The translations under genes and the position numbers were made by a program. Shown one piece after another: positions 1 to 40,568 of a stretch of DNA of 40,568 bases. The stretch's first letter is position 1. Each line of letters begins with the position of its first letter. The stretch is taken from assembly GCA_031418155.1 (NCBI GenBank), contig JANOWZ010000512.1, positions 1 through 40,568 on the forward strand. Direction: 5' to 3'. The notes under the pieces were generated by a model. The model saw nothing but the letters and a program-made list of their open reading frames with translations. It made no database searches and was not told the origin of the DNA. The stretch is from Deinococcales bacterium (GTDB lineage Bacteria > Deinococcota > Deinococci > Deinococcales > JAAFIG01).

Positions 1-233
1 TGGACGATGCCGATGTCATCTTCGGTATCACTTTCGACGAAGATGCTGGGGACGAAGTGCGCCTGACCGTGATCGCCAGCGGTTTCAACGAAACTCCAGG
101 CGTGATCACCAGCATTCAGAACGCTGGACGTGGCAACATTCCACTGCCGACCTTCTTGCAGCACCAGAACAAACCGGACCTGACCGATCTGGACATTCCG
201 GCGATCTTGCGTCACGCTCGAGAACGCGACTGA
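1..233 (+). CDS. ftsZ: Cell division protein FtsZ, C-terminal fragment (5' part outside window)
   Basis: The frame-3 ORF runs off the left edge and ends at TGA 231-233. The translation ...DEVRLTVIASGFNE...DLDIPAILRHARERD matches the end of the FtsZ core (R-V-T-V-I-A-T-G-F type) plus the conserved C-terminal D-I-P-x-x-L-R peptide. Confidence 0.8.
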   Translation, partial: DDADVIFGITFDEDAGDEVRLTVIASGFNETPGVITSIQNAGRGNIPLPTFLQHQNKPDLTDLDIPAILRHARERD

Positions 234-247
234 AGATCGGAAAAAGT

Positions 248-284
248 GAACCAAGCCTCGAGTCATGTGCTCGAGGCTTGGTTC
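248..284. terminator. Perfect 15-bp hairpin between convergent ftsZ and the M50 gene (bidirectional terminator candidate)
   Basis: GAACCAAGCCTCGAG (248-262), loop tcatgtg, CTCGAGGCTTGGTTC (270-284). It lies 15 nt after the ftsZ stop and overlaps the stop of the minus-strand ORF. Both arms end in CTCGAG. Confidence 0.6.
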
Positions 285-987
285 AAATTGGATTGCTCAC
301 GCCGGGAATTAAAATCCGAAACGCGAAACCAATGATGGCACGAATCACCTGCCCAATCGGTTGTTGAAAAATCACCAGAACAAAAATCAGTAGGTAACCC
401 GAGTTCGCCTGCGTGCGACGCAATGCCTCACCAAAATTGCCCGGAATCAATGCGGCCAGCAGGCTCGAGCCATCCAACGGTGGGATGGGTAATAAATTGA
501 AGACGAAGAGGGTCACGTTCAACTCGATCATCCGAATCAGCGTGTTGATTGCCCATTCGGGCGCGAGCAGATCACCGGTGAGCGCATCGTTCAGGCCACG
601 CTCGAGCCCGAGGTAACGCAGGGCGAAACCGGCGATCAAGACCAGTGCCAAGTTCATCAAAACACCGGCGCTCGAGACCAGGATTTCACCGAATTGCCGG
701 TTGCGGTACTTCCACGGTGCGGTACGAACCTGACCACCGAAGCCGAAACCGATCAGCACGATCAAGGCGATGCCGAGCGCGTTCAGGTAACGCAGTGGAT
801 TCCAAGAAAACTTTCCGTTCACGAGTGGTGTGTCATCACCCATCGCAATTGCGGCCCAGGCATGACCGTACTCATGCAACAGAAACGAAACGAGCAGGAC
901 GAGCAGATAAAGGCTGGCCTCGAGCGGTTGGGTGTTAAATTCACGCAGAATGTTCACGGTCAGTAGCCTACCTGAAGCGCAATCCAT
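283..987 (-). CDS. Site-2 protease family (peptidase M50) membrane metalloprotease
   Basis: HExxH motif in a TM segment (LLHEYGHAWAA) and a second M50 motif FNLLPIPPLDGSS; multi-pass hydrophobic profile. An alternative GTG start at 957 (VNILREF...) is preceded by TAGGCT plus 7 nt. Confidence 0.8.
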   Translation of the reverse strand: MDCASGRLLTVNILREFNTQPLEASLYLLVLLVSFLLHEYGHAWAAIAMGDDTPLVNGKFSWNPLRYLNALGIALIVLIGFGFGGQVRTAPWKYRNRQFGEILVSSAGVLMNLALVLIAGFALRYLGLERGLNDALTGDLLAPEWAINTLIRMIELNVTLFVFNLLPIPPLDGSSLLAALIPGNFGEALRRTQANSGYLLIFVLVIFQQPIGQVIRAIIGFAFRILIPGVSNPI

Positions 988-1025
988 TGTGGGTCACAAG
1001 AAGGAACAAGGCAGCCTCGAGCGGT

Positions 1026-1679: not shown

Positions 1680-1737
1680 GTCCGATCAGGCTACCATGAC
1701 CTCAAGTGCAGCAATAGCGGCGAAAAAATCAATTCCG

Positions 1738-1779
1738 CCAATCACTTCTGGCCAATCACTTCTGGCCAATCAATTCTGG
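1738..1779. repeat. 14-bp tandem repeat x3 (CCAATCACTTCTGG, third copy with 1 mismatch)
   Basis: Units read directly at 1738-1751, 1752-1765 and 1766-1779. The repeat spans the stop codon of the M20 gene (1770-1772) and lies about 60-100 nt upstream of the M50-like gene start (1679). Confidence 0.9.
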
Positions 1780-2888: not shown

Positions 2889-2894
2889 AGCCTC

Positions 2895-3025: not shown

Positions 3026-3031
3026 GAAGTT

Positions 3032-4240: not shown

Positions 4241-4318
4241 TGCAACTCGAGGTTTCAATAGATCACGCATGAGCAAGTCAGGCCACAAAACCGGAGTGGA
4301 TGCTCGAGCCTTGAACGT

Positions 4319-5404
4319 TCAACCGCGAATGCCAATGACTTCTGCCGCCATGCGTTTCGCCTCGTCTGGCCCGAGCGCCCCAACCTCGATGTTGCAAGTC
4401 CAAGTCGCACCCGCCGCCAAGGTCTTGATGTTCCCTTTGGCAGCCTCGGCGCTGTACCCCTCAGGCTCGGCGGTGGCGGGCAGGTTCAGGCCGAAGCAAT
4501 CCTGATCCGGGGTTCTCGAGATCCAACGCACGCCAAAATCCAATTCGCTCGGTCGGTGCGAGATCAAATCCGCCTGACCGTCCGGCAAGAGTTGCATCGC
4601 GTGCGCCCAGCCGTGCTCATCCGCCAAGTAATCAATAAAAAAGACGATCTCCGGCGCGAACTGCAATCCCGGCTCGAGCACATGGTGTTTGCTCGGATTT
4701 GCCGCGAGTTCGGTCAGAAATTCCATGTAACCGGGCGCGGGCTTGACGTGACTCGGGATGCTGGTGCGCACGCGGACGTGTTCGGGCGTGTACTGCGCGG
4801 TGTACTCGAGCCGCGCGTGATCGTGTGGGCGAAAGTTCGCGTGTGCCATGTACATCAATTCCATCGGTGTGCGTTTGAGGTTGTGAATGTTCATCTGGAT
4901 CGGGAATCGGCTCGAGTTGGCATACAGTTTCACGACCGGACGCGCCTGGTAATTCTGGCTGAACGCGACCGTGTGCTGATACGTGCCGGTCACGCCGATG
5001 TACGCGCCTCGAGCGTCCTCACCGATCAAGAGTTGCGCGGTTTGATACGGTGCGTTTGGCAATTCGCCGTGCAACGGATGCGTGTCTTCCGGTCCAGGAA
5101 CGCCCATCGCGGTCGCGCCGCAATGCAGCAAGAACGCACCGTAATTCTCGAGGTACGCCGTGTTCAAACGCGGCGAGTCGAACATGCTCTGCATCGTTAA
5201 CGCGCGCCCGTAGAACTTGAGGTGCCAGATTTGCTGCCCCTGGTACGGCAGGACCGTCATCTGCCCGAGTTCGTTCTCGAGGCGGATCGCGTGAACGCCA
5301 CTCGGATACAGAAAGCTCGAGGCCCGCAGTCCGGCGTGTTCGACAAGAAGTTTTTCATGTTCAGAGAAAAACGATTTTTGCAGGTGCAGCGTAATTTCAG
5401 ACAT
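4319..5404 (-). CDS. Aldose-1-epimerase-like protein (DUF4432-type)
   Basis: About 361 aa counted from ATG 5404 (MSEITLHL...), which is preceded by GGAGA. The HPLHGELPN segment and overall beta-rich pattern resemble the mutarotase-like DUF4432 family. The assignment is by memory of the family only. Confidence 0.5.
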   Translation of the reverse strand: MSEITLHLQKSFFSEHEKLLVEHAGLRASSFLYPSGVHAIRLENELGQMTVLPYQGQQIWHLKFYGRALTMQSMFDSPRLNTAYLENYGAFLLHCGATAMGVPGPEDTHPLHGELPNAPYQTAQLLIGEDARGAYIGVTGTYQHTVAFSQNYQARPVVKLYANSSRFPIQMNIHNLKRTPMELMYMAHANFRPHDHARLEYTAQYTPEHVRVRTSIPSHVKPAPGYMEFLTELAANPSKHHVLEPGLQFAPEIVFFIDYLADEHGWAHAMQLLPDGQADLISHRPSELDFGVRWISRTPDQDCFGLNLPATAEPEGYSAEAAKGNIKTLAAGATWTCNIEVGALGPDEAKRMAAEVIGIRG

Positions 5405-5444
5405 GCGGTCTCCGGGTTCGGCAAACGATTGCAGATTTGTTTCG

Positions 5445-5450
5445 AGTCTA
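5445..5450 (-). promoter_or_regulatory. -10 box TAGACT, about 40 nt upstream of ATG 5404
   Basis: Minus strand reads gcggTAGACTcgaaac...ccGGAGAccgcATG. Confidence 0.35.
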
Positions 5451-5489
5451 CCGCAATCTCGTCGCGGCTCGAGTCTCAAATCAAATCCG

Positions 5490-8114
5490 TCAGCGGCTTG
5501 ACGGAGTACACCGTTGATCTGTCGGATTCTCAGGTCCGATCACGATGTTGGTCGTCTCGAGGGTGATGTCCTGTTCGAGCAATTTGGGCGTGCCGCTCGA
5601 GGAAAAACTCAGGTTGTCCAAACGCCCGAGTTCACTGATGCTGACCTCATCGCTTGGTCCGGGACTGGTTCCAGGTTTGATGCGGTACGCGATCAGGTCA
5701 TACGTGCCAAACTCGAGGTCGGGAAAGTTGAAGCTTCCGTCGTTTGTCACCTCAAAGCCGGGAAAGTTCACGCGCCGTTGATCGTTGGCGCAACTCGGGT
5801 CACGTTTATACAACCGCACCCGCACGTTCTGGCTGTCGCTGATCGGTCTGGCCGCGCCAACACTGTAATACGCCCGCACCTCGAGCAATCGGACGGGGTT
5901 CGAGCCGTAATTGATGCTGATCCGACCGGCGTAACTGCCATCCGCAACCCCGGCCCGGTTCAGGTTCACCACGATCAAGCCTTCGCTGTCCACCGGGACG
6001 TTGGCGCTGAACGCTTCGGCCTTCAACCCCGGCGATGTGGCTGTGACGTTCATGACCGCTGGCACATCGCCAACATTTTTAAGGCTGAATTTGATCAGTG
6101 AATCATCTGGTCCAAAGACGATTGCGCCGTTGACGCTTTCGCTGCTGGTGCTGCTGGTGGTCGCTACAAGAAGTGGCCCCATGCTGGGATAATCGATGGC
6201 TTTTTGCAGCGCTTTGGCCGCATCGAGCAGGCCCGCACCGCAACCGCGTTCGCACAGGGCCATTCCGCTCAGGCTCGAGGAATCCCGCAGGTATGCCAGC
6301 ACCCGAGCCCAATTGCGTTTGATGTCACTGCCGGTCGGGTTGCGCAATTTCGCTTGGGCTTGCAGCATCATGGCGACCACACCGGTCACGTGTGGCGTGG
6401 CCATCGAAGTGCCCTGCAAGTAGTGCATCCCGAATTCCGGGTCGCTGTCGCTGCAAGGCGGCACACTGCCCGCAAAGTTCTCCAAAGAGCCGCAACCGCC
6501 CAGGCTGAGCACACCGTCCTGCGCCAAACCGCGCCGCGCCTGATCGCCACCGGGAGCCATCACGCTGATCGCACTGCCGTGATTGGAATACGAGGCCCGA
6601 GCCACAGTGCCATTCCCATCCGTTGGTGCGGTCGCACCGACCACGATCACGCCACGCAGGTTGGCGGGCACGAACTCGCTGGTGTCACGGTTCTTGTTGC
6701 CCGCCGCAACCACCACGATCACGCCCTTGTTGGTCGCGGCGGTCACAGCATCCTGCAAAAAACGGCTCGAGGCGATGGCTGGCCCGCCCAGGCTCATGTT
6801 GATGATCTGGGCCGGATTGGAGTTGATTATTTTTTTCGTCGGGTCGTTTTTGTCTTCTATCGGCAGACCCGCCGCCCAGTACACCGCTCGAGCGATGGTC
6901 TCGAACGAAGAGGAGCCCCTGTCAAAGGCGCGAACCGCTTGGATTTGGGCGTTCCAGGCGACACCCGCACCGAATTTGTCGTTGTTGCTGCAAGCCCCGA
7001 TGGTTCCGGCCACATGCGAACCGTGAAATGAGGCATCGTTGTTGTCGAAGGGATTGTCGTCATTTTCAATCAGGTCGTAACCGGCAATGATTTTGGGCAG
7101 GCCCGGAGCGACCAGGCAATCAAAGTCGGGATGGCGCGATGCCGGATCGGTCGGATGCCACAAAATGCCGCTGTCGATCACTGCGACCCTGACGGCGTTG
7201 GCGGCGGTCAGGGGCGATAGTGGTTTGTCCCAGGCGGCGGGCAGGTTCAATTGCTCGTAATGCCAGCGTTGATTCGGGCCTGTCGTGCTGGTGTAAAACG
7301 GATCGGTCGGGGTGGCCTCGAGCGTGACCCGGTAGTTCGGTTCGGCATATTCGACATCGCTGCGGGCCTCGAGCGAACGAATCCATTCGAGCGTATCCTG
7401 ACCCGCAGCGCTCCCCGCCGTGACGAAACCACCGGCAGAAGAAGTTGTGAATCCTGTGCTCGAGCGACGAACCACACCGGTTTGTCCGATGACCGCCCGA
7501 GCAAATGGCAATGGTCCAGATGTGGTGGCACGCAAACTGCCCGTTTTGAGTTTGACAATCGCTTCGTTGGCGGCGAACACGGCATCGTCTGGAATGCGTG
7601 AAAGTTGGCTCGAGGCACTGACCTCAGGGTTCAGGCTCCCGGTATTGAAGTCCGTGTTCAGGCTCGAGAATCGGATTCCGTCACGCACTCGGCCTTGAAT
7701 GCTGCCGCACGGTCCGCCCGAACCTGCCGCCAGCGTCACCACCGGCCCCGCAATCTTCTCGGTCGTATTCGTTGCGAGATCGGTGACTGTGCCGGAAAAG
7801 GTCAACCGCGTGCTCGATTTTGGACTGACTGCGATCAACCATGTGGCTTTGGGTATCATGGCGTTTGTCTGAAATATTGCAGCATTCGGTAACGGCGGAG
7901 CAACTTCAAAGGTATAAACAAGTTTTTGACCCTTCAGTTTGGAATCATTCAAGTCCAAATTGAGTGTGATCGCCTCGCAGGGTGGCACCAAACCCGGTTG
8001 ACCCTGGTATGTGACCCGCACCACCGCCGGAACGGGTTGCCGTGGACACGCTACCAAAGCCATTGACAGCAGCAACAGGCCAGTGAGGGTGCGTCCAAGC
8101 GACAGGGGGGGCAT
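5490..8114 (-). CDS. S8 (subtilisin-like) serine peptidase, lipoprotein, with I9-like propeptide and C-terminal beta-sandwich domains
   Basis: Catalytic triad motifs VAVIDSGI (Asp), HGSHVAGTIG (His) and GTSMATPHVTG (Ser); propeptide end VEYAEPNY; signal peptide with lipobox LVAC. The ORF-track start is TTG 8126, but ATG 8114 (MPPLSL...) with GAGGG upstream is preferred. Confidence 0.85.
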   Translation of the reverse strand: MPPLSLGRTLTGLLLLSMALVACPRQPVPAVVRVTYQGQPGLVPPCEAITLNLDLNDSKLKGQKLVYTFEVAPPLPNAAIFQTNAMIPKATWLIAVSPKSSTRLTFSGTVTDLATNTTEKIAGPVVTLAAGSGGPCGSIQGRVRDGIRFSSLNTDFNTGSLNPEVSASSQLSRIPDDAVFAANEAIVKLKTGSLRATTSGPLPFARAVIGQTGVVRRSSTGFTTSSAGGFVTAGSAAGQDTLEWIRSLEARSDVEYAEPNYRVTLEATPTDPFYTSTTGPNQRWHYEQLNLPAAWDKPLSPLTAANAVRVAVIDSGILWHPTDPASRHPDFDCLVAPGLPKIIAGYDLIENDDNPFDNNDASFHGSHVAGTIGACSNNDKFGAGVAWNAQIQAVRAFDRGSSSFETIARAVYWAAGLPIEDKNDPTKKIINSNPAQIINMSLGGPAIASSRFLQDAVTAATNKGVIVVVAAGNKNRDTSEFVPANLRGVIVVGATAPTDGNGTVARASYSNHGSAISVMAPGGDQARRGLAQDGVLSLGGCGSLENFAGSVPPCSDSDPEFGMHYLQGTSMATPHVTGVVAMMLQAQAKLRNPTGSDIKRNWARVLAYLRDSSSLSGMALCERGCGAGLLDAAKALQKAIDYPSMGPLLVATTSSTSSESVNGAIVFGPDDSLIKFSLKNVGDVPAVMNVTATSPGLKAEAFSANVPVDSEGLIVVNLNRAGVADGSYAGRISINYGSNPVRLLEVRAYYSVGAARPISDSQNVRVRLYKRDPSCANDQRRVNFPGFEVTNDGSFNFPDLEFGTYDLIAYRIKPGTSPGPSDEVSISELGRLDNLSFSSSGTPKLLEQDITLETTNIVIGPENPTDQRCTPSSR

Positions 8115-8888: not shown

Positions 8889-8890
8889 GA

Positions 8891-9589: not shown

Positions 9590-9595
9590 GTTCTA

Positions 9596-9601
9596 AATCT
9601 A
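9596..9601 (-). promoter_or_regulatory. Extended -10 (TGG-TAGATT), 6 nt upstream of the hisA ATG (leaderless-type promoter)
   Basis: Minus strand reads TTGTGAcgaccacgcttTTGGTAGATTtagaacATG. Confidence 0.45.
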
Positions 9602-9675
9602 CCAAAAGCGTGGTCGTCACAATCGTGCAGCGCGGGAATGACCGGCACATTCAAACTCAACACGCCGGGAACGAC

Positions 9676-9720
9676 CGGCGTGACCACGTTGAATATCGAC
9701 GCAGAGAATCACTCAACCAT
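9676..9720 (-). repeat. Degenerate duplicate of the hisA translation-start region (about 45 bp)
   Basis: Minus strand ATGGTTGA-GTGATTCTCTGCGTCGATATTCAACGTGGTCACGCCG compared with the real hisA 5' end (9589-9544) ATGGTTGAAGTGATTCCTTGTGTCGATATTCAGCGTGGTCGCGCCG. The 1-nt deletion creates ATG GTT GAG TGA. Confidence 0.7.
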
Positions 9721-9847
9721 GCCTGTGAACATAACACCTCACCGACTTGCGAGGAGATGCGAGCGATTTAGGGGTGATTCGACTGTGATTTCATGCGAGC
9801 TGCACGCACACCGATGCGCAGATTGTATTTCACGCCCCAGGATTGGT

Positions 9848-9853
9848 TAGAAT
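9848..9853 (+). promoter_or_regulatory. -10 box TAGAAT; candidate minDE promoter giving a ~150-nt leader
   Basis: Plus strand reads ggattggtTAGAATatcgc. No start codon follows within 10 nt. minD itself has a strong SD (AAGGAGG). Confidence 0.3.
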
Positions 9854-10011
9854 ATCGCACTCACCCAAACGGGTTAGCCTCAGGTTCAACAGATTATTCA
9901 CGCCCAAGCCACATTCGGGCGTAAACGATTCCGAAAACATTCACAGCACGCATCACCTCGAGCAACACCCCGGCGCAACGGGGCACGGGGTGAACAGCCA
10001 AGGAGGAGTTC

Positions 10012-13623: not shown

Positions 13624-13694
13624 AACTTGGTCAGACCAAGATTTTGACATGAAAATCGTCCCGCACACAGTAGGCAAGGGACTTCTCGTCCAGG

Positions 13695-13769
13695 CTCGAG
13701 GACTGGCGATGCTCAAGCTCGAGGACTGGCGATGCTCAAGCTCGAGGACTGGCGATGCTCAAGCTCGAG
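13695..13769. repeat. 23-bp tandem repeat x3.26 (CTCGAGGACTGGCGATGCTCAAG)
   Basis: Identical units at 13695, 13718 and 13741, plus a terminal CTCGAG at 13764. It overlaps the last codons and stop (13759-13761) of the O-antigen-ligase-like gene. Confidence 0.95.
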
Positions 13770-21801: not shown

Positions 21802-22527
21802 TTACTTTTTTCTTTGATCTTCTGTAACGTTTCTCTGCCCTTGATCGGCAAGTGTTTTCGCCCGCTCGAGAATCGCATCGAACATGCTCGCGGTCAATCT
21901 TCCCGTTTGCGTGTTCTGACGTGACACATGGTACGAGTCCAACAGCACGCGCCCGTCCGGAAGTTGATGCTCGAGCCCATGCCCAAACTCGAACGCGGAT
22001 TTGCGCAGGCCATAGACCTCGAGCCATGCCTCGTGTCCAATCCGGCCAATACCGAGGATCACGCGCAGGTTCGCTAAGAAGTTCAGTTCCGCCTCGAGCC
22101 AGGGTCGGCAGGTTCGCAATTCTTCGGGTGAGGGTTTGTTCTCCGGCGGTGCGCACCGTCCCGCCGCCGTGATGAACAGGTCGTGCAAGCTCATGCCATC
22201 ATCTCGAGAAATGGCTTTCGCTTGCGATGCGAGTCCGGCGCGATGCAAGGCTGGAAACAAAAAATCTCCACTCGAGTCCCCGGTGAACATCCGCCCCGTG
22301 CGGTTGCTGCCATGCGCCCCCGGTGCGAGGCCCAACAACAAGATTCTGGCGTTTAGATCACCGAATCCTGGAACGGGTTTGGCCCAGTACGTCTGTTCGC
22401 GGTACGCGGCGCGTTTGACCCGGCCAACCTCTTCGCGCCAAGCGACCAAGCGAGGACAACGGGTGCAGGTCTCGAGTTTTGCGTGCAATTGCTCGAGCGA
22501 TGTTGAATTCACACGGCATTCTCGCAT
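21802..22527 (-). CDS. Uracil-DNA glycosylase, family 5 (UdgB-like)
   Basis: CTRCPRL Fe-S cysteines and motif GLAPGAHGSNRTGRMFTGD (the GLAPA/HG.NRTGR form of family 5, not the GEAPG of family 4), plus HVSRQN near the C-terminus. Confidence 0.8.
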   Translation of the reverse strand: MRECRVNSTSLEQLHAKLETCTRCPRLVAWREEVGRVKRAAYREQTYWAKPVPGFGDLNARILLLGLAPGAHGSNRTGRMFTGDSSGDFLFPALHRAGLASQAKAISRDDGMSLHDLFITAAGRCAPPENKPSPEELRTCRPWLEAELNFLANLRVILGIGRIGHEAWLEVYGLRKSAFEFGHGLEHQLPDGRVLLDSYHVSRQNTQTGRLTASMFDAILERAKTLADQGQRNVTEDQRKK

Positions 22528-22702
22528 CAAACCGGGACCGTCGGTTTTGCTTCATGAAGACTCAAACCTGAGAATTTCTAGCAGAAAGTTTGGTTTTGTC
22601 TGTAATCAAAACCCGAATTGACCAGCATCAATTAACGCCCAAGCATTCATCGGTGTTACGATGCTTTCGCAAGTGATACCAAGGTTCAAAAGGGAGGTCT
22701 TT

Positions 22703-23899
22703 ATGAACTTGTTGGACATGGTTAAAGGACAATTGACGGATTCGGTCATGCAGCAACTCGGGAGCGCCAGCGGTTTGGGTGCGGGCGATGTTTCCAAAGC
22801 GATGGGTGCAATCATCCCCACGCAACTGAGCGCCATTGTCAAGCATGGTTCCACCCCGCAGGGCGCAGAGGGCTTGATGGGCATGTTGGGCAACTTGGGC
22901 AACCTCGGCGATTTCGCCGGAATGCTCGGACAGACGGGCGGCGCGGCCAACATCGCCAAGATCGGTGGTTCGATCCTGCCCGCACTTTTCGGTGGAAACC
23001 TCTCGGGCATTGTCAGTGGGCTCGCCTCGGCAACCGGTTTGGGTTCCGGTCCATTGAACATGCTGATGGGCTTGGCCGGACCATTGATCATGGGTCAACT
23101 TGGCAAGGCCGTGACTGGTGGCGGCTTGAACGCTACCGGTTTGGCGAGCATGCTTGGCGGTCTGGCTCCACAAGTTTCGGGGATGCTGCCAGCGGGCCTG
23201 GGCAACATTCTGGGCGGTTTGGGTGGACTGGGCGCACTCGCCGGAGCTGCCGGGAACATCGGGAACATCGCTGGAGCCGCCACAGGAGCCCTCGGCAACC
23301 TGAGCGGTGCCGCCGGAGCAAACCTCGGTGATGCCGCCAAAGCCGCCGGAGCGGTCGGTGCAGGTCTCGCTGGGGCAGCCACGTCTGGTCTGGGCGGTGC
23401 GGTCAGCAGCGCAGCCTCGAGCATGGGGAACGTCGCACCAGTCGTAGCCAAGGGTGGCATGGGTTGGCTTCCAGCGGCAATCGCCGGTGTGTTGGCCTTG
23501 GGTGGTTTGGTCTGGTACTTCACGCGCCCCGCGCCGGCACCGGTTGCTGCTGATACGACCACAACTCCAAGCACAGACACCACGACCGCACCAGCAACGG
23601 ACACGATGGCCGCAGCAGCTTGCACCAAGACTTTCACGCTGTCGGTCAAAGATGGGGACACTGTGACCAACAACTTCCCATTCGGTGGCGAGGGCGAAGG
23701 CGAAGGTTACGCCGTGACCGTCACACGTTTGGATGTTCAACCTCGAGTCATCGGCACGAAGATATTGCCGCTCGATAAGGACTGCAAATTCGGGTACGAC
23801 TCGATCCCAGGCAAAGGCAAAGTCCAGTACGATGTTCGTCCAAAGAATGCGGCCCCGGACTCGACACCGATTCAAACCCTGACCTTGACCGTTAATTAA
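22703..23899 (+). CDS. DUF937-like N-terminal domain protein with long Gly/Ala-rich repeats, one TM helix and a C-terminal extracytoplasmic domain
   Basis: MNLLDMVKGQLTD...MQQLGS...AMGAIIPTQL is a DUF937-type start. About 200 aa of GxxG/AGA low complexity follow, then TM WLPAAIAGVLALGGLVWYF and a Thr-rich linker. ATG lies 8 nt after GGGAGG. Confidence 0.6.
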   Translation: MNLLDMVKGQLTDSVMQQLGSASGLGAGDVSKAMGAIIPTQLSAIVKHGSTPQGAEGLMGMLGNLGNLGDFAGMLGQTGGAANIAKIGGSILPALFGGNLSGIVSGLASATGLGSGPLNMLMGLAGPLIMGQLGKAVTGGGLNATGLASMLGGLAPQVSGMLPAGLGNILGGLGGLGALAGAAGNIGNIAGAATGALGNLSGAAGANLGDAAKAAGAVGAGLAGAATSGLGGAVSSAASSMGNVAPVVAKGGMGWLPAAIAGVLALGGLVWYFTRPAPAPVAADTTTTPSTDTTTAPATDTMAAAACTKTFTLSVKDGDTVTNNFPFGGEGEGEGYAVTVTRLDVQPRVIGTKILPLDKDCKFGYDSIPGKGKVQYDVRPKNAAPDSTPIQTLTLTVN

Positions 23900-23969: not shown

Positions 23970-23975
23970 TATGCT
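23970..23975 (+). promoter_or_regulatory. -10-like TATGCT, 7 nt upstream of the glnS ATG 23983
   Basis: Plus strand reads ggTATGCTcgagcagATG. Confidence 0.3.
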
Positions 23976-23982
23976 CGAGCAG

Positions 23983-26337
23983 ATGTCAGACCACGCCCCG
24001 AACCCAGAACCGAAACGCCGCATCAGCCCGAATTTCATCACGGAGATCATTGACCGTGACCTCGAGCAGCAACGGTACGGGCAGGTTGTGACGCGCTTTC
24101 CACCGAACCCGAACGGTTTCGCGCATTTGGGCCATGCCTTTGCTAGTTTGCTAAATTTCGGTATCTCGCAAGATTACGCGGGACGTTTCGTGTTGCGCAT
24201 GGATGACACGAACCCAAAAACAGATCAGCCCGAGTACGTGACCGCCATTGCCGAAAGTTTGAAATGGCTGGGCTTGGATTGGGGCAGCGAGATCAGTTAC
24301 GCCTCGAGCTACTTTCCTGAATTGCACACCAGCGCCATTCGTCTGATCGAACGTGGCCTCGCCTACGTGGACAGCGTGAGTCCCGAAGAGATGTCACGCA
24401 TGCGCGGCACGGCCAGCATTCCCGGCAAGCCCAGTCAATACCGTAACCGCAGCATTGCCGAAAACCTCGAGATGTTTGCCCGAATGAAAGCCGGAGAATT
24501 CCCAGATGGAACTCACGTGCTTCGCGCCAAGATCGACCTCGAGAATCCGAATTTCAAATTGCGCGATCCGGTGTTGTACAGGATCGTTCACGCCACCCAT
24601 TACCGCACTGGCGATGATTGGTGCATTTACCCGAGTTACGATTTCGCGCAAGCGATCACCGACGCGCTCGATGGTGTGACGCACAGCTTGTGCTCGCTCG
24701 AGTTCATTGACAACAACGCCGTGTACAAATGGTTGATGCAGCATTGCTGGATCGAAGAGGGCCGAGGCGAACCGCCAGTGCAGTACGAGTTTGGACGCCG
24801 CAGCCTCGAGTACACGGTTGTATCCAAACGCAAATTGCGCAAGTTGGTCGAGGGCAACTTTGTGCACGGCTGGGACGATCCACGAATGCCAACCATTGCC
24901 GCGCAGCGTCGTCGTGGCGTGACATCCGAAGCGATTCGCACCTTTGCCGCCGGTATCAGTGTAAACCGCACAAACCGCACCGTCGATCTGGCGTTGCTCG
25001 AGAATGCGATTCGGGACGATTTGAACCATCGCGCACCTCGGGTCATGGCAGTTTTGAAACCGTTGAAAGTTGTGATCGAGAACTTGACGGAATCGCAAAC
25101 GCTCGAGGTTCCGTACTGGCCGCACGATGTCGTGCGCGAATCACCGGATGGTCTGGTTGCGCTGCCATCGGGTGAGCGTGTTGCGCCAGAAAAAGCGACT
25201 CGAGCCGTGGAGTTAACTGGAGAAATTCTGATCGAGCAGGACGATTTCGCGGCGAATCCGCAACCCGGATTCAAACGTCTAACCGTCGGTGGCAAAGTGA
25301 GATTGCGTGGTGCAGGCGTGATCCAATGCGAATCGTTCACAACCAACGATGCTGGAAAAATCATCGAGTTGCGTTGCAAACTCTTGCCAGAACCCGAGAA
25401 GGCGAATGCCGTGATCCACTGGTTGAACTCGAGCGCCGTATCAGCAGAGTTCAGGCTTTATGACCGGTTGTTCAAAGTTGCGCAGCCTGAAGCGGAAGCA
25501 AAAGAACTCGAGGAAGATGATGCAGAAGATGGCGAGCCAGTCGCAGATTTCTTGTCATTCTTGAATCCGAACAGCCTCGAGACCACGCACGGTTTTGTTG
25601 AGGTGAGCATCACATCTGATCCACCCGAGACGCGCTATCAGTTTGAGCGTTTGGGCTACTTCTGGCGTGATCCTGTGGACTCGACCAGTACGAAATTGGT
25701 GTTTAATCGGATCATCACGCTTCGGGATTCATGGGCGGAAAGAGCAGAACCCATCGAGGCCCGTAAAGCAAAATCCGACAAACCTCAAGTTCAACGCGAA
25801 CTCGAATTGAGTGTAGAAGAACAAAAAATTTTCGAGCAATTTAAAGCCAAAGGTGTTTCCGAGAACGAAGCGAGTGTGCTGGCCCGAGAACCAAAACTGG
25901 CCGCGTATCTCGAGTCTGCGGCACAACATGCACCGATCACGGCGCTCTCGAATTGGGTGGTCAACGATCTCGGCGGATTGCTGCGCGAGGGTGAAATCAA
26001 ACTGTCACCGGCTGGATTGGCTGGACTGGTGCAACTGATCGCGGATGGTTCGATCACGCGGCGCATCGCGCAGGACGTTCTGGTAGAATCGCTCGAGACG
26101 GGCGCGAACCCAAGCGAACTTGTGGCGCAAAAAGGTTTGAAAGTCGTCAGTGACACGGGCGAACTCGAAGCGATTCTCGAGGCTTTGATGACTCAATACG
26201 CCGATAAGGTCGCGGCATACCGTGCGGGCAGAACCGGCATGGCGGGCTTTTTCGTTGGGCAGGTCATGCAGGCCACCAAGGGCGCAGGCAATCCGCAGGT
26301 TGTGCAAGAATTGGTGGCGCGAAAACTGGCCGGTTAA
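23983..26337 (+). CDS. glnS: Glutamine--tRNA ligase with C-terminal YqeY/GatB-like appended domain
   Basis: Class I motifs (RFPPNPNGFAHLGH = HIGH; VVSKRKL = KMSKS-like), a GlnRS core of ~560 aa, then a ~200-aa tail (...SNWVVNDLGG...GFFVGQVMQATKGAGNPQVVQELV) typical of YqeY/GatB C-terminal domains. Confidence 0.9.
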   Translation: MSDHAPNPEPKRRISPNFITEIIDRDLEQQRYGQVVTRFPPNPNGFAHLGHAFASLLNFGISQDYAGRFVLRMDDTNPKTDQPEYVTAIAESLKWLGLDWGSEISYASSYFPELHTSAIRLIERGLAYVDSVSPEEMSRMRGTASIPGKPSQYRNRSIAENLEMFARMKAGEFPDGTHVLRAKIDLENPNFKLRDPVLYRIVHATHYRTGDDWCIYPSYDFAQAITDALDGVTHSLCSLEFIDNNAVYKWLMQHCWIEEGRGEPPVQYEFGRRSLEYTVVSKRKLRKLVEGNFVHGWDDPRMPTIAAQRRRGVTSEAIRTFAAGISVNRTNRTVDLALLENAIRDDLNHRAPRVMAVLKPLKVVIENLTESQTLEVPYWPHDVVRESPDGLVALPSGERVAPEKATRAVELTGEILIEQDDFAANPQPGFKRLTVGGKVRLRGAGVIQCESFTTNDAGKIIELRCKLLPEPEKANAVIHWLNSSAVSAEFRLYDRLFKVAQPEAEAKELEEDDAEDGEPVADFLSFLNPNSLETTHGFVEVSITSDPPETRYQFERLGYFWRDPVDSTSTKLVFNRIITLRDSWAERAEPIEARKAKSDKPQVQRELELSVEEQKIFEQFKAKGVSENEASVLAREPKLAAYLESAAQHAPITALSNWVVNDLGGLLREGEIKLSPAGLAGLVQLIADGSITRRIAQDVLVESLETGANPSELVAQKGLKVVSDTGELEAILEALMTQYADKVAAYRAGRTGMAGFFVGQVMQATKGAGNPQVVQELVARKLAG

Positions 26338-27900: not shown

Positions 27901-28419
27901 AGTTGAGGACGCTGAGCTTCGATACGCCTCGAGCGCACGTTCTTCCGCCGGGATGCGCACGCCGAGCAGCATGATTGCGTTCAAGATCGTCCAAACAATG
28001 GCCGTGATCGACGCGCCAAAAATCAGTGGACCGGTCAGCAACTCGAGCGCGACAACGACATAATTGGGATGCGGAATGAACTTGTACGGGCCGCGCCTCA
28101 CGAGTTTCGCCCCAGGCACGATCAGGATGCGGGTGTTCCAGAACTGCCCCAGACTCGAGATGGCCCAGTAGCGCCCGAATTGTGCGAGGACAAAAATACT
28201 CAACCAGAGAAACCAGAACGGCCCAAATTGTGATCCTCGAGCCAAGCTTTCAAAGAACGTGGCGAGAATCCAGGCGCTGTGCATCGCCACCATCCACGGG
28301 TAATGCTCGGGTGCGTGTTCGATTGCGCCCTGGGATCGCGCCCAAGCTTCGTTGCGTTTGGCGACGCGCAACTCGAGCAGGCGTTGAACGATCACGAAGG
28401 TGATGAAGGCGTAAAGCAC
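27892..28419 (-). CDS. Isoprenylcysteine carboxyl methyltransferase (ICMT) family membrane methyltransferase
   Basis: RRGPYKFIPHPNYVVVALELL matches the ICMT/phospholipid-MT signature (R.P.Y....HP.Y); 4-5 TM segments; GTG start. The 3' end overlaps the convergent monooxygenase gene by 9 nt. Confidence 0.75.
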   Translation of the reverse strand: MLYAFITFVIVQRLLELRVAKRNEAWARSQGAIEHAPEHYPWMVAMHSAWILATFFESLARGSQFGPFWFLWLSIFVLAQFGRYWAISSLGQFWNTRILIVPGAKLVRRGPYKFIPHPNYVVVALELLTGPLIFGASITAIVWTILNAIMLLGVRIPAEERALEAYRSSASSTST

Positions 28420-28460
28420 GCCTCGAGTGTACGACGTGAATCGAGGCTCGAGGCGTGCTT
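28414..28460 (-). promoter_or_regulatory. Perfect 14-bp inverted repeat enclosing the ICMT GTG start codon
   Basis: AAGCACGCCTCGAG (28414-28427) / CTCGAGGCGTGCTT (28447-28460) with a 19-nt loop. The GTG start (28419-28417) lies inside one arm. It sits between the Yip1-like stop (28471) and the ICMT gene. Confidence 0.55.
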
Positions 28461-29619: not shown

Positions 29620-30684
29620 TTAAGTTCTAAACAGCACTTGTTCGGCGCTGAATCCCGGTCCGACGGCAGTCAGCAATCCGGGTTCATCATGCGGTAATCC
29701 AGGATGGCGCTGCATGAATCGCTCGAGCACAAACAGGACTGTGGCGCTGCTCATGTTGCCATGTTCGGCCAGGACAGCCCGCGCATCCTCGAGAACACTG
29801 GCGGACAATCCCAGCGCACTTCTGAACGCCTCCATGACCTTCTCGCCGCCGGGATGGGTCACAAAATGCCGCAATTGCTCGAGGCTGAGGTTGTGCTTGG
29901 CGCAGGCCATTTCGACATCGGCCCGAATATTTTTTTCAACAATGTTCGGCACGCTTTTGGAAATGTTGACCTTCAGGCCGGTGTTGGTCACATCCCAACC
30001 CATGATGTCCTCGGTCTCGTCCCAGAGCGTGCTCGAGCCGCCGATGATGCGCGGCCCATTCCCCTCTGGGGCGAGCACGATGGCTGCCGCGCCATCGGCG
30101 AACAGGCTGGTGGCGATCAGGTTCGGCCTCGAGATGTCGTTCGCCTGAAAGGTCAGGCTGCACAATTCGACCGCCACAAGCAATGCGGGTTTGCCAATGG
30201 CCCGCACGAATTCGCTGGCGCGGTTCAGGCCGCCCGCTCCGCCCGCACAACCCAAACCCCAAATGGGAACGCGCACGGTGTGCCTCGAGAGGTCGAGGCG
30301 TTTGATCAACCAACTGTCCAAACTCGGCGTGGCGAGACCGCTGGTGGAAACGAAGAAAATCCCGCCAAGCTCGCTTGCGTCCAAACCGGAACGCTCGAGC
30401 GCAATCCGGGCAGCGCGTTCGGACAAATCCAGCGCAACCCGAAAGTAAATCTCGTTGCGTTCCTGCCAGGAGTGATTCGTTTGAAACCACTCGAGCGGCG
30501 CACTGACATACCGCGATTGAATGTGACCGTTGTCGAACACGGCCAGCAGGCGGTCCACGTCGCGCAGACCGGCATCGAACAAGGATTTGACCAGTGTGCG
30601 CACATCCGCTTGGCTCAGGTGATGCTCGGGCACAGCGGTTCCAACCGATAAGATTCGCGGCTCGAGTTGAGAGGTTGAACTCAT
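29620..30684 (-). CDS. Type III polyketide synthase (chalcone/stilbene synthase superfamily)
   Basis: Active-site Cys context [13 protein letters not shown], His [10 protein letters not shown], Asn [14 protein letters not shown]; 354 aa. Confidence 0.9.
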
Positions 30685-37162: not shown

Positions 37163-37163
37163 G

Positions 37164-37496: not shown

Positions 37497-37826
37497 TTAG
37501 TCCACGATAAAAAGTTTCGCACCGGTTGCGGTGCTCGAGCGATGCGCCTCAGCTCCATCGGCCACTTGATAATTGATTCCTGGCTTGAGTTTGAAGGTGC
37601 GTCCATCCTCGAGTTCGGTATCGAGTTCACCCTCGAGACACAAGAGGATGTGGCCTTTTTTACACCAGTGATCGGCCAGGTATCCGGGCGTGTATTCGAC
37701 CATGCGCACGCGAATCTCACCGAAATGCTGCGTGCGCCAGAAGGCCGTGCCGGTCTCGCCGGGATGTGTTGTGGTTTCGATGTTCGCCCAATCGGTTGTA
37801 CCGAATGGGATCTCGAGCATCTTCAT
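37497..37826 (-). CDS. Small cupin-fold protein (DHCW-motif cupin family-like)
   Basis: 109 aa; ...VEYTPGYLADHWCKKGHILLCLEGEL... matches my recollection of that family. Confidence 0.6.
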   Translation of the reverse strand: MKMLEIPFGTTDWANIETTTHPGETGTAFWRTQHFGEIRVRMVEYTPGYLADHWCKKGHILLCLEGELDTELEDGRTFKLKPGINYQVADGAEAHRSSTATGAKLFIVD

Positions 37827-38105
37827 TTAGACGCTCGCGTGAACGTACCGGGCAAGGCTCATGTCGTGCCAACCAAAACGCTCGAGTGCGGTCAAGCGTC
37901 CGAGTTCGTCGATCAGTGTGACCTCGAGCGTGTCGAGTTGCGTGCCGTGCTTCACGAGGTCGTCGTAGATGACTTCAAAGGCGTGCGTGAACATGTTGCG
38001 CCCAGCAAAATCTTGAGCCTCGAGCGCGGCAAAGAAATCGAGTTTGGATTCGACACGATGCAGCAGTGCCTCGAGTTTTTGTTTGAGTTCTGTCCGTTTA
38101 GTCAT
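37827..38105 (-). CDS. Hypothetical 92-aa helical protein
   Basis: The ORF overlaps the ilvN stop by 8 nt, and its stop abuts the cupin ATG (TAAATG). No motif recognised. Confidence 0.45.
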   Translation of the reverse strand: MTKRTELKQKLEALLHRVESKLDFFAALEAQDFAGRNMFTHAFEVIYDDLVKHGTQLDTLEVTLIDELGRLTALERFGWHDMSLARYVHASV

Positions 38106-38652
38106 TGGCGACCCCTTGAAGTGGATGCTCGAGTGCGACGCTTTCGCCCTGGTAGACGTGGCTTGGAATGTCGGCGTTGCTGCCTCGGGTCAATGCGACG
38201 CGGCCCGTGCGCATGGTTTCGATCAATCCGAATGGACGCATTTGTTCAATAAACGCAATGATTTTTCCTTCGTCGCCGGTGGCCTCAAAGACGTAACTCG
38301 AGCGGCCCACGTCCACATTGCGGGCGCGGAAGTCCTCGGCGATTTGTCGAATCTCGAGGCGGGTTTCGGGTGTGACTCGGACTTTGAGCAATACCAGTTC
38401 GCGGTCCACGAATTTCTCTCGGGCGTGATTGGTCACCAGTAGCACATCCTCGAGTTTTTCGAGTTGGCGTTGAATCTGATCGGCCATCGCTTCGGGCGCT
38501 TCAGCGATAAACGTCATGCGCGAGATGCCGGGTTGTTCGGTGTTGCCGACCGACAGCGAATAAATGTTGTACCCACGCCGAGCGAACAATCCGCAGACGC
38601 GCATCAAGACTCGGGGTTCGTCGCGCAGGAACGCGGAGAAAATGTGTTTCAT
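38098..38652 (-). CDS. ilvN: Acetolactate synthase small (regulatory) subunit
   Basis: ACT-domain start ...LRDEPRVLMRVCGLFARRGYNIYSLSVG.TE.PGISRMT; 4-nt overlap with ilvB. Confidence 0.9.
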   Translation of the reverse strand: MKHIFSAFLRDEPRVLMRVCGLFARRGYNIYSLSVGNTEQPGISRMTFIAEAPEAMADQIQRQLEKLEDVLLVTNHAREKFVDRELVLLKVRVTPETRLEIRQIAEDFRARNVDVGRSSYVFEATGDEGKIIAFIEQMRPFGLIETMRTGRVALTRGSNADIPSHVYQGESVALEHPLQGVAND

Positions 38653-40337
38653 GCTATGACTTTCTCGCGTGCGCCCAATGGATCGACTGGCTCGAGTTTC
38701 GGATCGTCATCGAGCATTTCGTCAAGACCTTTTCCGGCGGGAACCATTGGGAAGACACCTTGCTCGGACGGCACGCGTACCTCGAGCACGCTGGGGCCGT
38801 CGGCATCGAGCCATTTTTGAATTGTGCTTTGCAAATCACTGGCGGTTTCGGCGGTGAATCCTGGAATGCGGTACGCGCTCGCCAGGATCGCAAAATCCGG
38901 GTTGGAATCCTCGAGGTAGACCTCGCTGTAACGCTTCGCGTGGAACATCTCCTGCCATTGGCGCACCATGCCAAGGTAGCCGTTGTTGATAACCACGAAT
39001 TTCACGGGAATGTCGTACTTGCGTAGCGTGGCGAGTTCTTGAATCGTCATTTGTGCACTGCCGTCTCCGGCGAAAGCAATTACGCGCTTGTTCAGTGCAA
39101 TCGCAGCCCCCATCGCGGCGGGCAGTGAGAAGCCCATCGTGCCAGCACCACCGGAATTGAGCCACAAGCGCGGCCCCTCGAATGGATGGAGTTGCGCGAC
39201 CAGCATTTGATGCTGCCCGACATCGGAAACCACGATGTCATCGGCTTTGAGCGCTTTGGAAATCATTTCAATCGCTGCCGCAGCGCCCCAAGTTGGGCGT
39301 TTGGGTTGACGCGATTTCCAATCCTCGAGCTTCGTCCACCAATCGCCCGTCTCGAGTTTGCCGCTGATGCCTGCCGTGAATGCCTCGAGTGCGGCGGCAC
39401 TGTCCGCATGAACTGGGATCAGGGCCGGGATGAGTTTGTTGTGCTCGGCAGTGTCCACGTCCACGTGAATGATCTTGGCGTTCTGTGCGAAACGGCTGGT
39501 TTTGCCGGTCACACGGTCATCGAAACGCATGCCGACCGCGACCATGACATCGCAGTTGGTGATTGCACGGTTGCTGGCGACACTGCCGTGCATTCCGGGC
39601 ATCCCGAGCCATTGCGGATCGCTCGCCGGAAAATTGCCAAGGCCCATCAAGGTGGTGATCACGGGCATTCCGGTTTTGTGTGCGAACTCGAGCACTTGCG
39701 CACTCGCATCACAGGCTCCGCCACCGACGATCAACAATGGCTTTTTCGCGTTGCGGATCAACTCGAGGGCGCGTTCAACGTCGCTGGCTTTCGGCTCGAG
39801 ACGGGCTGGAATGGTTTTCGGTCCGACGATTGGCGCGTTCGTTTTCGCCTGTTGCACGTCTTTGGGCAAATCCACCAGCACCGGTCCCGGACGGCCCGAG
39901 AGCGCAATGCGGATCGCTTCGGCCACGGTTTTGGAAACGTCATCGGCGCTGCGAACCAGGAAATTGTGCTTGGTCACGGGCGCGGTGATGCCGGTGATGT
40001 CGGCCTCTTGGAAGGCATCCGTGCCGATCAGTGGGGTTGGGACATTGCCGGTGATCGCCAGGATTGGCAGGCTGTCCAGCATCGCGTCGGCCAGTGCGGT
40101 TACGAGGTTCGTCGCACCGGGGCCGCTCGTCGCCATGCAGACACCAAGCCCGCCCGTGACGCGAGCATAACCCTCAGCCGCGTGACCTCCGCCCTGTTCA
40201 TGCCGGACCAAAATGTGCTGAATCGGGCTGTCGTACAGCGCGTCATAGACCGGCATGATCGTGCCGCCGGGATGTCCAAAAATGTGTTTGACCCCGTGGG
40301 CCTCGAGTGTTTTTAGGAGTGCTTCTGATCCGAGCAT
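38649..40337 (-). CDS. ilvB: Acetolactate synthase large (catalytic) subunit, biosynthetic type
   Basis: ThDP enzyme pattern: GHPGGTIMPVYDAL, GPGATNLVT, and the ThDP-binding GDGSAQMTIQEL...NNGYLGMV. SD AAGGAG upstream. Confidence 0.95.
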   Translation of the reverse strand: MLGSEALLKTLEAHGVKHIFGHPGGTIMPVYDALYDSPIQHILVRHEQGGGHAAEGYARVTGGLGVCMATSGPGATNLVTALADAMLDSLPILAITGNVPTPLIGTDAFQEADITGITAPVTKHNFLVRSADDVSKTVAEAIRIALSGRPGPVLVDLPKDVQQAKTNAPIVGPKTIPARLEPKASDVERALELIRNAKKPLLIVGGGACDASAQVLEFAHKTGMPVITTLMGLGNFPASDPQWLGMPGMHGSVASNRAITNCDVMVAVGMRFDDRVTGKTSRFAQNAKIIHVDVDTAEHNKLIPALIPVHADSAAALEAFTAGISGKLETGDWWTKLEDWKSRQPKRPTWGAAAAIEMISKALKADDIVVSDVGQHQMLVAQLHPFEGPRLWLNSGGAGTMGFSLPAAMGAAIALNKRVIAFAGDGSAQMTIQELATLRKYDIPVKFVVINNGYLGMVRQWQEMFHAKRYSEVYLEDSNPDFAILASAYRIPGFTAETASDLQSTIQKWLDADGPSVLEVRVPSEQGVFPMVPAGKGLDEMLDDDPKLEPVDPLGAREKVIA

Positions 40338-40568
40338 GGTGTTCTCCTTAAGGGATGGGAGGGCGATTTTGTGGAGTCTAACTCGAGGAAGTGAGGCGGA
40401 GAGGAAAGTAACAGAAGAGGAAGGGCGAACAGCCCGTCAGCGATCTAGGCCCATTAGGTGCCGGTGTTGGATCAAGAAGGTGCTGTCCTGTGAACAAGAA
40501 AGATCAAAGTAACGGCCTAAAGTGCGTTCGATTTTGGGTTTTGATTTTACGTTTCTCTTTCATCTTTC

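Follow-up and report, generated by a model that had tools for sequence, protein, structure and literature searches.

The highly iterated palindrome HIP1 (GCGATCGC) has been known for about three decades without an agreed function, and to our knowledge work on it has been confined to cyanobacteria. Here we analysed a 40,568-bp stretch of DNA from an uncultured Deinococcales bacterium, a relative of Deinococcus and Thermus (contig JANOWZ010000512.1; referred to at its full length as the window) and found that the hexamer CTCGAG is a genome-wide and lineage-wide highly iterated palindrome (HIP), a tag at the level of the DNA itself. Under the definitions of Elhai 2015 and Xu et al. 2018, CTCGAG qualifies as a HIP on four properties, namely an excess of at least about 15-fold, occurrence in both coding and non-coding DNA, enrichment beyond codon usage and conservation of sites, and it is not HIP1. 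The HIP1-like character proposed in a first-pass annotation is upheld by an approximately 26-fold excess, sites in all codon phases, dense spacers, independence from codon usage, conservation and presence throughout the lineage. The same annotation had known of no described CTCGAG equivalent, and in the literature searched we likewise found no earlier account of an iterated CTCGAG palindrome.

Both CTCGAG and HIP1 are short palindromes rich in G and C that are over-represented tens of times. According to the two main accounts of HIP1 (PMC4390886, PMC5861425), both words occur in genes in all reading frames and in spacers without being explained by codon usage, both are lineage-wide with exceptions and reside in genomes that avoid other palindromes, and in both cases relatives carry methyltransferases for the word for which a restriction partner is not listed. 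In contrast to HIP1, an octamer of cyanobacteria, CTCGAG is a hexamer of unrelated sequence in Deinococcota and reaches 6–8 copies per kb, compared with the 0.3–2.7 per kb given for HIP1. HIP1 is reported to be associated with methylation of GATC (N6-methyladenine, m6A) and CGATCG (mainly 5-methylcytosine, m5C), whereas relatives of the present organism carry m6A in CTCGAG, set by enzymes of the Eco57I/TaqI type. The over-use of Leu-Glu, an exclusion zone of about 20 bp and an apparently compensatory turnover of sites, all described below for CTCGAG, were not found reported for HIP1 in the parts of these accounts that were consulted. HIP1 proper, or a derivative with its CGATCG core, was rejected as an identity for the element, as CGATCG occurs just twice in the window and the host belongs to the Deinococcota.

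Alternate HIPs have been reported in cyanobacteria, including GGCGCC in Calothrix, GCSGC in Cyanothece PCC 7822, RCCGGY in Oscillatoria PCC 10802 and GGGATCCC in Yellowstone Synechococcus, and they show that the word can be replaced by other palindromes, hexamers among them, each HIP being accompanied by a methyltransferase of matching specificity (Elhai, PMC4390886). These alternates belong to single cyanobacterial strains, whereas CTCGAG is common to a deep clade with glutaminyl-tRNA synthetase (GlnRS) identities down to 63%.

Candidate orphan methyltransferases of Thermales and Nocardia recognize the same word, CTCG(m6A)G, again with no restriction enzyme listed. Blow et al. 2016 (PMC4752239, S3 Table) list active type II m6A methyltransferases for the motif CTCGAG with no cognate endonuclease, among them:

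M.Mru1279II, Meiothermus ruber DSM 1279, Mrub_2385: 99.5% of sites methylated
M.Mch9957IV, Meiothermus (now Calidithermus) chliarophilus, MeichDRAFT_0814: 94.1% of sites methylated
M.Mhy14884I, Marinithermus hydrothermalis, Marky_0034 (Eco57I-family annotation in S5 Table): 94.6% of sites methylated

The Thermales hosts of these enzymes are the closest cultured relatives of the window organism, and the genera concerned, or close relatives of them, show a two- to fourfold enrichment of CTCGAG. For the orphan enzyme of Nocardia, the text of the same paper describes a clustering of the motif at the origin of replication and does not mention a genome-wide excess. The orphan enzymes differ from the present case in that Blow et al. 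report no genome-wide over-representation, and in that one enriched relative (A. silvanus) is apparently unmethylated, no CTCGAG methylation being listed for M. silvanus DSM 9946 (PMC4752239).

With the DNA uptake sequences (DUS) of Neisseria and the uptake signal sequences (USS) of Pasteurellaceae, CTCGAG shares the features of a short word that is over-represented genome-wide, occurs in coding and non-coding DNA and is often paired in inverted orientation in terminators. DUS and USS are asymmetric words of 9–12 bp with roughly one copy per kb, and in Neisseria the receptor is known; such uptake sequences, often arranged as inverted repeats in terminators, are found in coding and non-coding DNA, slightly distort the coding sequence and mark "self" DNA. 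CTCGAG was rejected as a DNA uptake sequence, as it is a 6-bp palindrome at 7 copies per kb with at most 0.08 bit of information per flank position. Chi, which is over-represented, asymmetric and strand-skewed, lets a repair nuclease recognize self DNA; CTCGAG equals its own reverse complement, therefore no strand skew is possible, and a Chi-like hotspot was rejected as well. GATC, the Dam site, is a methylated palindrome with a spacing of ~250 bp that proteins of repair and replication recognize, but it reaches this density without enrichment, and neither an over-representation nor a distortion of the proteome comparable to that of CTCGAG is seen.

Abundance of CTCGAG and independence from coding

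Exact counting yielded 285 copies of CTCGAG in the window, the first at position 217 and the last at 40382, with a mean spacing of 141 bp. One hundred dinucleotide-preserving shuffles of the window gave a mean of 10.94 copies (standard deviation 2.86, maximum 18), which corresponds to an approximately 26-fold enrichment, while base composition alone (57.4% G+C, hereafter GC) predicts 12.5 copies. The first-pass annotation had arrived at the same number, end positions and spacing (about one copy per 140 bp), and its guess of 10–15 expected copies brackets both null values, the true excess being larger than the ~20-fold it had assumed; the exact count set against a null, which it had named beforehand as a check, lies far above the shuffle maximum. 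CTCGAG ranks first among all hexamers in the window, and the runner-up among palindromic hexamers, TGCGCA, has 28 copies. The sites and the largest gap between them are distributed as follows:

217..40387, no strand: dispersed array of 285 CTCGAG sites, 251 genic and 34 in spacers, covering 4.2% of the window bases
22498..23415, no strand: longest site-free stretch, 924 bp between sites, ~750 bp of it in a DUF937 gene and the remainder in the upstream spacer

The 924-bp gap is compatible with random placement. Spacers are denser in sites than genes (11.0 versus 6.7 per kb), and genic sites are found on both strands and in codon phases 0, 1 and 2 in numbers of 149, 39 and 63, in agreement with the earlier statement that copies occur in genes of both orientations, in all phases and in intergenic DNA.

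Synonymous codons were shuffled within each gene with protein sequence and per-gene codon usage preserved, which left 41 ± 5 genic copies (maximum 61) compared with the 251 observed. All phases exceeded this null, with 149 versus 33 in phase 0 (codons CTC and GAG), 39 versus 2 in phase 1 and 63 versus 6 in phase 2. The comparison is conservative because CTCGAG itself inflates codon usage and shapes the protein sequences, and the enrichment persists through the very control that the first-pass annotation had put forward. GAGCTC, which contains the same two codons in reverse order, has three copies in the window; an explanation by codon or dipeptide usage is ruled out by the synonymous shuffling together with this near-absence. 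At the protein level, Leu-Glu is the most over-represented dipeptide (195 versus 82 expected), with Glu-Leu at expectation (86). CTCGAG spells 149 of the 195 Leu-Glu pairs (76%), with CTC being only 26% of Leu codons, and a further 31 are single-transition neighbours of CTCGAG, while TTG and CTG, the commonest Leu codons overall, supply just 13.

The flanks of the sites are biased to G at −1 (115/285, 40%) and C at +1 (124/285, 44%), a preference noted earlier that is real but weak, and the pooled relatives show a weak symmetric preference for A at −3 (1.6-fold) and G at −1 (1.4-fold). Since flanks with at most 0.08 bit per position carry almost no information, the repeated unit is the hexamer itself, with no longer repeat hidden behind it; a dispersed repeat such as a repetitive extragenic palindrome (REP) or a miniature inverted-repeat transposable element (MITE) was rejected, as there is no flank conservation beyond ±1–3 nt. 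Vsr-type very-short-patch repair in E. coli leaves the words produced from T:G mismatches depleted. In the window, none of the transition-neighbour pairs is depleted (CTTGAG/CTCAAG 44, TTCGAG/CTCGAA 46, CCCGAG/CTCGGG 56), and the deamination products CTTGAG and CTCAAG, with 25 and 19 copies against a composition estimate of about 9 each, behave like the other transition neighbours, so that a Vsr-type single-base footprint was rejected. The restoring force acts on the whole word.

Distribution, conservation and spacing in Deinococcota

Relatives were sampled solely around one gene of the window:

23971..26337, plus strand: GlnRS-YqeY fusion gene with 16 sites, ruler for the lineage comparison; ~8 of its sites are kept across the strongly enriched clade

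The nearest genome in the species collection is a metagenome-assembled genome labelled Deinococcales bacterium (GlnRS 90% identical), and among cultured relatives GlnRS identity is highest for Meiothermus and Calidithermus (61–64%), Deinobacterium (62%) and Deinococcus (57–58%). The enriched sequences comprise:

Same species (L003, L004): GC 56%, 8.2–8.4 CTCGAG per kb
Strongly enriched clade (L001, L005–L008): GlnRS 63–91% identical to the window, GC 49–57%, 5.9–8.3 per kb
L138 (ENA ERZ26165376, contig ctg355590, 1.46 Mb): GlnRS 64%, GC 61%, 4.1 per kb, 65 copies versus 10.8 after shuffling
M. taiwanensis, an Allomeiothermus silvanus-like contig, C. chliarophilus and Deinobacterium chartae: GlnRS 61–63%, GC 62–71%, 2.3–4.4-fold over synonymous shuffles

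In L005–L008 the excess over synonymous shuffles amounts to 6–10-fold, all three phases and the spacers are enriched, and Leu-Glu stands at 2–2.5 times expectation (1.9 times in L138). Among the last four sequences listed, CTCGAG is the commonest hexamer in all but M. taiwanensis, where it ranks third, and the Leu-Glu count of GlnRS separates the strongly enriched clade (13–20) from the others (9–11). No enrichment was observed in the controls E. coli (1 site versus 2.4 shuffled), D. radiodurans MP1 (7 versus 9) and the D. peraridilitoris chromosome (3 versus 5.4), and T. thermophilus pTT27 showed depletion (31 versus 63). Pooled over the window, L001 and L005–L008 (133 kb), 916 copies stand against 37.6 expected. 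Public assemblies with the trait include GCA_031370845.1, which is conspecific with the window, the JAYURE01 metagenome-assembled genome and GCA_965189485.1. Because independent assemblies of the species (L003, L004) and of relatives (L001, L005–L008, L138) show the enrichment, it is not an assembly artefact, a possibility the first-pass annotation had raised, and CTCGAG is a lineage-wide trait.

Conservation of the individual sites was assessed in an alignment of 9.7 kb between the window and L001 (83.5% DNA identity), in which 55 of 67 window sites (82%) are found at the same position, compared with 42% for all hexamers. Spacer sites are kept in seven of nine cases (39% for spacer hexamers), and codons are better conserved inside than outside the motif (CTC 88 versus 65%, GAG 82 versus 71%, TCG 100 versus 75%), although the numbers are small. 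Two three-genome comparisons were used to polarise the changes (window/L001/L005, 7.8 kb; L006/L007/L008, 11.5 kb). Per branch, 8.5–23% of ancestral CTCGAG sites were lost, whereas 31–43% would be expected for an average hexamer as calculated from the measured branch lengths; existing sites thus disappear two to four times more slowly than average hexamers change. Gains per branch in the two trios numbered 1, 6, 6, 7, 5 and 9 and lie above the rough neutral expectation on five of six branches, an estimate for the first trio, based on one-mismatch precursors at neutral rates, being about one gain per branch. The polarisation suggested in the first-pass annotation revealed sites that are lost more slowly than average hexamers change and are gained, on most branches, faster than this rough neutral expectation.

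The GlnRS codon alignment of eight genomes shows that LA, LP, KG, AQ, AN and VD changed to LE where a new site appears, and that at the ~8 constant sites of the strongly enriched clade the outgroups spell the same Leu-Glu CTGGAG or TTGGAA. An example of a site gained at the expense of the protein is the following:

24538..24543, plus strand: CTCGAG (Leu-Glu) in the window and L001; TTGGCA in L005 and L006–L007 and CTGGCA or CTGGCC in L008–L010, all Leu-Ala

Four bases differ here while the 24-nt flanks are nearly identical. The force behind CTCGAG prevails over codon preference and, in many places, over the protein sequence as well.

The sites keep apart from one another. Only two spacings below 20 bp occur in the window (37 expected), those of 40–150 bp are in excess, and the deficit of close spacings is common to every relative. 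Pooled over five loci, Leu-Glu within 20 bp of another site is spelled CTCGAG in 25–35% of cases and farther away in 81–87%, which is the clearest single result for a coverage-like behaviour. Helical phasing (10–11 bp) of the spacing was not found, the sole periodicity at short range in the 40-kb window being the 3-bp codon period; the definition of the HIP class also includes a periodicity along the chromosome of 10–90 kb. Turnover looks compensatory as judged from the aligned sequences; for seven of 34 lineage-specific gains, a same-lineage loss lies no more than 40 bp away (2.8 expected, P = 0.02). Two examples are located in the window:

29788..29793, no strand: site present in the window and L001; L005 reads GTCCAT and has new sites 21 bp to either side
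30128..30133, no strand: site present in the window and L001; in L005 this position reads CGGGAA, and a CTCGAG lies 30 bp off, at a place that is CTGCAC in the window

In L006, a site is shifted by 8 bp through a change of CTCGAG to TTGGAA and of CCAAAG to CTCGAG. Gains and losses often change three to five of the six bases with the flanks conserved, which reflects either stepwise change with a rapid return to preferred codons or residues after abandonment of a site, or block events. Two paralogous solute-binding-protein genes (SBP_bac_5) of L008 (9905-11476 and 11656-13233) carry the same new site at homologous positions (alignment columns 9002 and 10756), where GA[AG]GC[AG], retained in L006 and L007, became CTCGAG by four to five base changes; either gene conversion between the paralogues or a parallel gain would account for this.

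An AAA_16-like gene of 399 aa in L006 (20368-21567), absent from that place in L007 and L008, contains no CTCGAG in 1.4 kb, and recently acquired DNA therefore lacks the tag. L006 also has a site-free region of 2.2 kb (4318-6557) with two open reading frames (ORFs) of unknown family beside pseudopilin genes. Both segments look like recent acquisitions.

Further features accompany the sites in spacers of the window:

248..284, no strand: hairpin with a perfect 15-bp stem (GAACCAAGCCTCGAG, 7-nt loop, CTCGAGGCTTGGTTC) between convergent genes, a CTCGAG pair topping the stem
28415..28459, no strand: hairpin with a 13-bp stem (AGCACGCCTCGAG, 19-nt loop, CTCGAGGCGTGCT) between two minus-strand genes, with two sites
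13694..13769, no strand: perfect 23-bp tandem repeat of 3.3 copies (unit GCTCGAGGACTGGCGATGCTCAA) with CTCGAG in each, at 13695, 13718, 13741 and 13764

The tag is built into terminator-like hairpins because any two copies of a palindrome are complementary. Paired spacer sites 20–30 bp apart are frequent (18134/18158, 22471/22492, 29049/29070, 35494/35524), and several of them cap hairpin stems. The 23-bp repeat is flanked by genes for an amidohydrolase and for an O-antigen-ligase-like protein, in the spacer that separates them. It is one of only two short tandem arrays in the window and alone carries CTCGAG; the other, a 14-bp repeat of 3.1 copies (GCCAATCACTTCTG) at 1737-1779, begins in the spacer after a gene ending at 1679 and enters the 3' end of the 1770-2888 gene.

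Other words of this DNA also deviate from expectation. The octamer CCTCGAGG is avoided in the window (2 versus 19 expected from independent flanks) and in the 133-kb pool (10 versus 48), GCTCGAGC is not avoided, and CCTCGAGG predominates in Deinobacterium chartae (33 of 73); the clade may possess a restriction system with 8-bp specificity. In the same pool, the other 63 palindromic hexamers have 899 copies where 2114 are expected, and about 25 of them show an observed/expected ratio of at most 0.1. Among the purged words are CCGCGG (0 versus 56), GTCGAC (0 versus 38), GCGCGC, GGCGCC and GGGCCC (1 each versus 56), CGATCG and GGATCC (2 each), and CTGCAG and GAGCTC (3 each). Such a purge suggests that this DNA has long been under strong pressure from restriction, like that of the cyanobacteria that bear HIP1. 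None of the viral contigs dense in CTCGAG could be tied to this lineage; the 14 densest that were inspected are nearly all of high GC (61–70%), and in three (L040, L115, L119) GAGCTC is abundant too, which reflects codon usage. In one viral contig (IMGVR_UViG_3300017971_000277, first 2.9 kb), AGCGCT occurs 16 times and CTCGAG 13 times, and the former could be another iterated word or a local repeat.

Methylation and competing explanations

We called 43 genes, which make up 92% of the window, with the calls in one ambiguous region backed by contigs of other assemblies. They are ordinary chromosomal genes or unknowns and include the GlnRS-YqeY fusion, ilvBNC, MinD/MinE, RNase HII, TsaD, a HisA/HisF-family protein (His_biosynth), a family-4-like uracil-DNA glycosylase, glycosyltransferases and a subtilase. 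No DNA methyltransferase, restriction enzyme/nuclease or obvious DNA-binding factor is among the 43, which bears out the earlier remark that no gene in the window explains CTCGAG. No part of the window matched an Rfam RNA family. Upstream of minD, a spacer of 420 bp (9590-10011) has a single CTCGAG, near the gene, and neither an Rfam match nor a called gene.

We favour, at a probability of roughly 45% and thus somewhat short of even odds, the reading that CTCGAG is a tag kept at about one per 120–170 bp, methylated by a solitary enzyme and read by a DNA-transaction system. A directional force on the whole hexamer holds this density, and the tag would most likely be modified by a conserved, solitary Eco57I/TaqI-type enzyme with CTCG(m6A)G specificity, as in the related Thermales, because the Thermales enzymes mirror the pairing of HIPs with methyltransferases described by Elhai. 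Methylated or hemimethylated sites may in turn be recognized by a system that requires every position to lie within ~100 bp of a mark, with strand or self recognition in repair, recombination or natural transformation as candidate roles. The dynamics look like selection for even coverage, since such selection with diminishing returns predicts both the ~20-bp exclusion and the compensatory turnover.

For the methyltransferase itself, L138 is a further strongly enriched Deinococcota lineage and the best public sequence in which to locate it. M.TaqI, whose sequence was verified as identical to PDB 1AQJ, was used as reference, and its listed homologues belong to Thermus, Anaerolineae and Armatimonadota, with none evident in this lineage. 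A TaqI-type (TCGA) methyltransferase as the cause was rejected, as other NTCGAN contexts are not enriched and GTCGAC is absent. With a TaqI-like protein as query, HMMER was run against 1.84 billion representatives and the matches were ranked by Leu-Glu excess as a proxy for the host, which gave P0324 as the best candidate; it was rejected as a member of a planctomycete family whose contig has two CTCGAG in 21.5 kb. The family (L136, L137) consists of conserved Eco57I+TaqI_C methyltransferases widespread in Pirellulaceae and Anatilimnocola (Planctomycetota) at 44–50% identity, orphan-like in appearance and with no relation to CTCGAG density.

Several observations weigh against the reading of a methylated, selected tag. 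The A. silvanus-like contig is 3.4-fold enriched, although CTCGAG methylation is not listed for M. silvanus DSM 9946; the prediction of no enrichment without methylation failed here, and a strict dependence on methylation is therefore weakened. Either earlier methylation left this enrichment behind, or the enrichment has another cause than methylation. A regex scan of ~150 kb of clade DNA, an uninformative fraction of less than 5% of a genome, returned no methyltransferase ORF of the NPPY or PCQ/ENV type. The Thermus and D. radiodurans controls are megaplasmids, and the turnover result stems from 34 gains (P = 0.02) placed by three-taxon parsimony (majority rule) on MAFFT alignments. Biased gene conversion can mimic selection in every conservation and gain/loss test used here. 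The proposed reader function is modelled on HIP1 with DmtA/DmtC in cyanobacteria and is inferred by analogy only.

We consider it unlikely that CTCGAG is a functionless by-product of mismatch processing, whether methyl-directed, Vsr-like or of another kind, or of biased gene conversion that resolves heteroduplexes toward the word. Enrichment in every codon phase and most of all in spacers, in all relatives whatever their GC content, the lack of CTCGAG in inserted DNA, and amino-acid changes that appear tolerated but not obviously useful are consistent with such a process, which would also reproduce the apparent conservation and excess of gains; Elhai likewise proposed that HIPs arose through repair (PMC4390886). 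A process that operates independently at each near-cognate site, however, predicts neither the exclusion zone nor gains near losses. The neighbour words show no single-base signature (44, 46 and 56 copies, none depleted), and correction of one mismatch could not directly produce the many gains in which three to five bases change together. The biased repair linked to a CTCGAG methyltransferase that the first-pass annotation had envisaged finds support in part: such enzymes are documented in related Thermales, whereas repair of a single base is not supported, the transition neighbours being equally common and undepleted. A trivial origin in codon or dipeptide usage, a dispersed repeat or MITE, or an assembly chimera is refuted and carries practically no weight. 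High-GC genomes that favour CTC and GAG can have many copies, and some high-GC viral contigs reach 4–7 sites per kb, but these have high GAGCTC alongside, whereas the window has three copies; synonymous shuffling removes 84% of the genic sites, the near-zero flank information and only two short tandem arrays leave no room for a repeat family, and the trait recurs in nine independent assemblies.

A signal for kin recognition in natural transformation, effective at uptake or afterwards in protection or integration, appears distinctly improbable to us. Such a signal would favour DNA fragments of relatives, an idea recently put forward for HIP1. Even coverage at ~140 bp would tag every short fragment, the inverted site pairs in terminator-like hairpins resemble those of Neisseria uptake sequences, and both Thermus and Deinococcus are naturally competent. 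In addition, preprints tie HIP1 to methylation-dependent transformation efficiency and to DNA-uptake genes (10.1101/2024.09.10.611283; 10.64898/2026.06.24.733823). A hexamer at 7 per kb, however, offers little specificity per site, and the Thermus and Deinococcus sequences tested are not enriched. DNA uptake in Thermus is moreover independent of sequence. We regard as more doubtful still the idea that an abundant dimeric protein, nucleoid-associated or chromosome-organising, binds CTCGAG, its footprint setting the ~20-bp exclusion and its required occupancy the density. A palindrome fits a symmetric dimer, and the scarcity of close pairs as well as the weak symmetric flank preference (A at −3, 1.6-fold; G at −1, 1.4-fold) are in line with it, as is the role in chromosome structure argued for HIP1 by Xu et al. 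(PMC5861425), but the spacing shows the 3-bp codon period and no helical phasing, and the flank information is very low for a protein site.

Implications for HIPs and for this lineage

CTCGAG provides a second, independent HIP case with another word, another phylum and another methylation chemistry in its relatives, and hence comparative leverage on HIP1. What the two systems have in common, namely a palindromic word, conserved sites, depletion of other palindromes and methyltransferases for which no restriction partner is known, points to what matters, while the 20-bp exclusion, the compensatory turnover and the replacement of amino acids narrow the mechanism in the direction of a reader that must find a tag close to any position. 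In practical terms, CTCGAG is a sharp compositional marker for binning and for the detection of foreign DNA in these genomes, and as it biases protein evolution through an excess of Leu-Glu and Ser-Ser, it could mislead phylogenetic and selection analyses.

We tentatively suggest, while considering it somewhat less probable than its negation, that HIPs are a convergent form of genome tagging, in which a methylated palindrome is driven to about one per 140 bp by selection for gap-free coverage and ~1% of dipeptides are rewritten. If true, an as yet undiscovered machinery for DNA transactions should exist to read these tags, and Meiothermus ruber or other culturable relatives in which a CTCGAG m6A methyltransferase is known would offer an independent system for the problem of HIP1 function.

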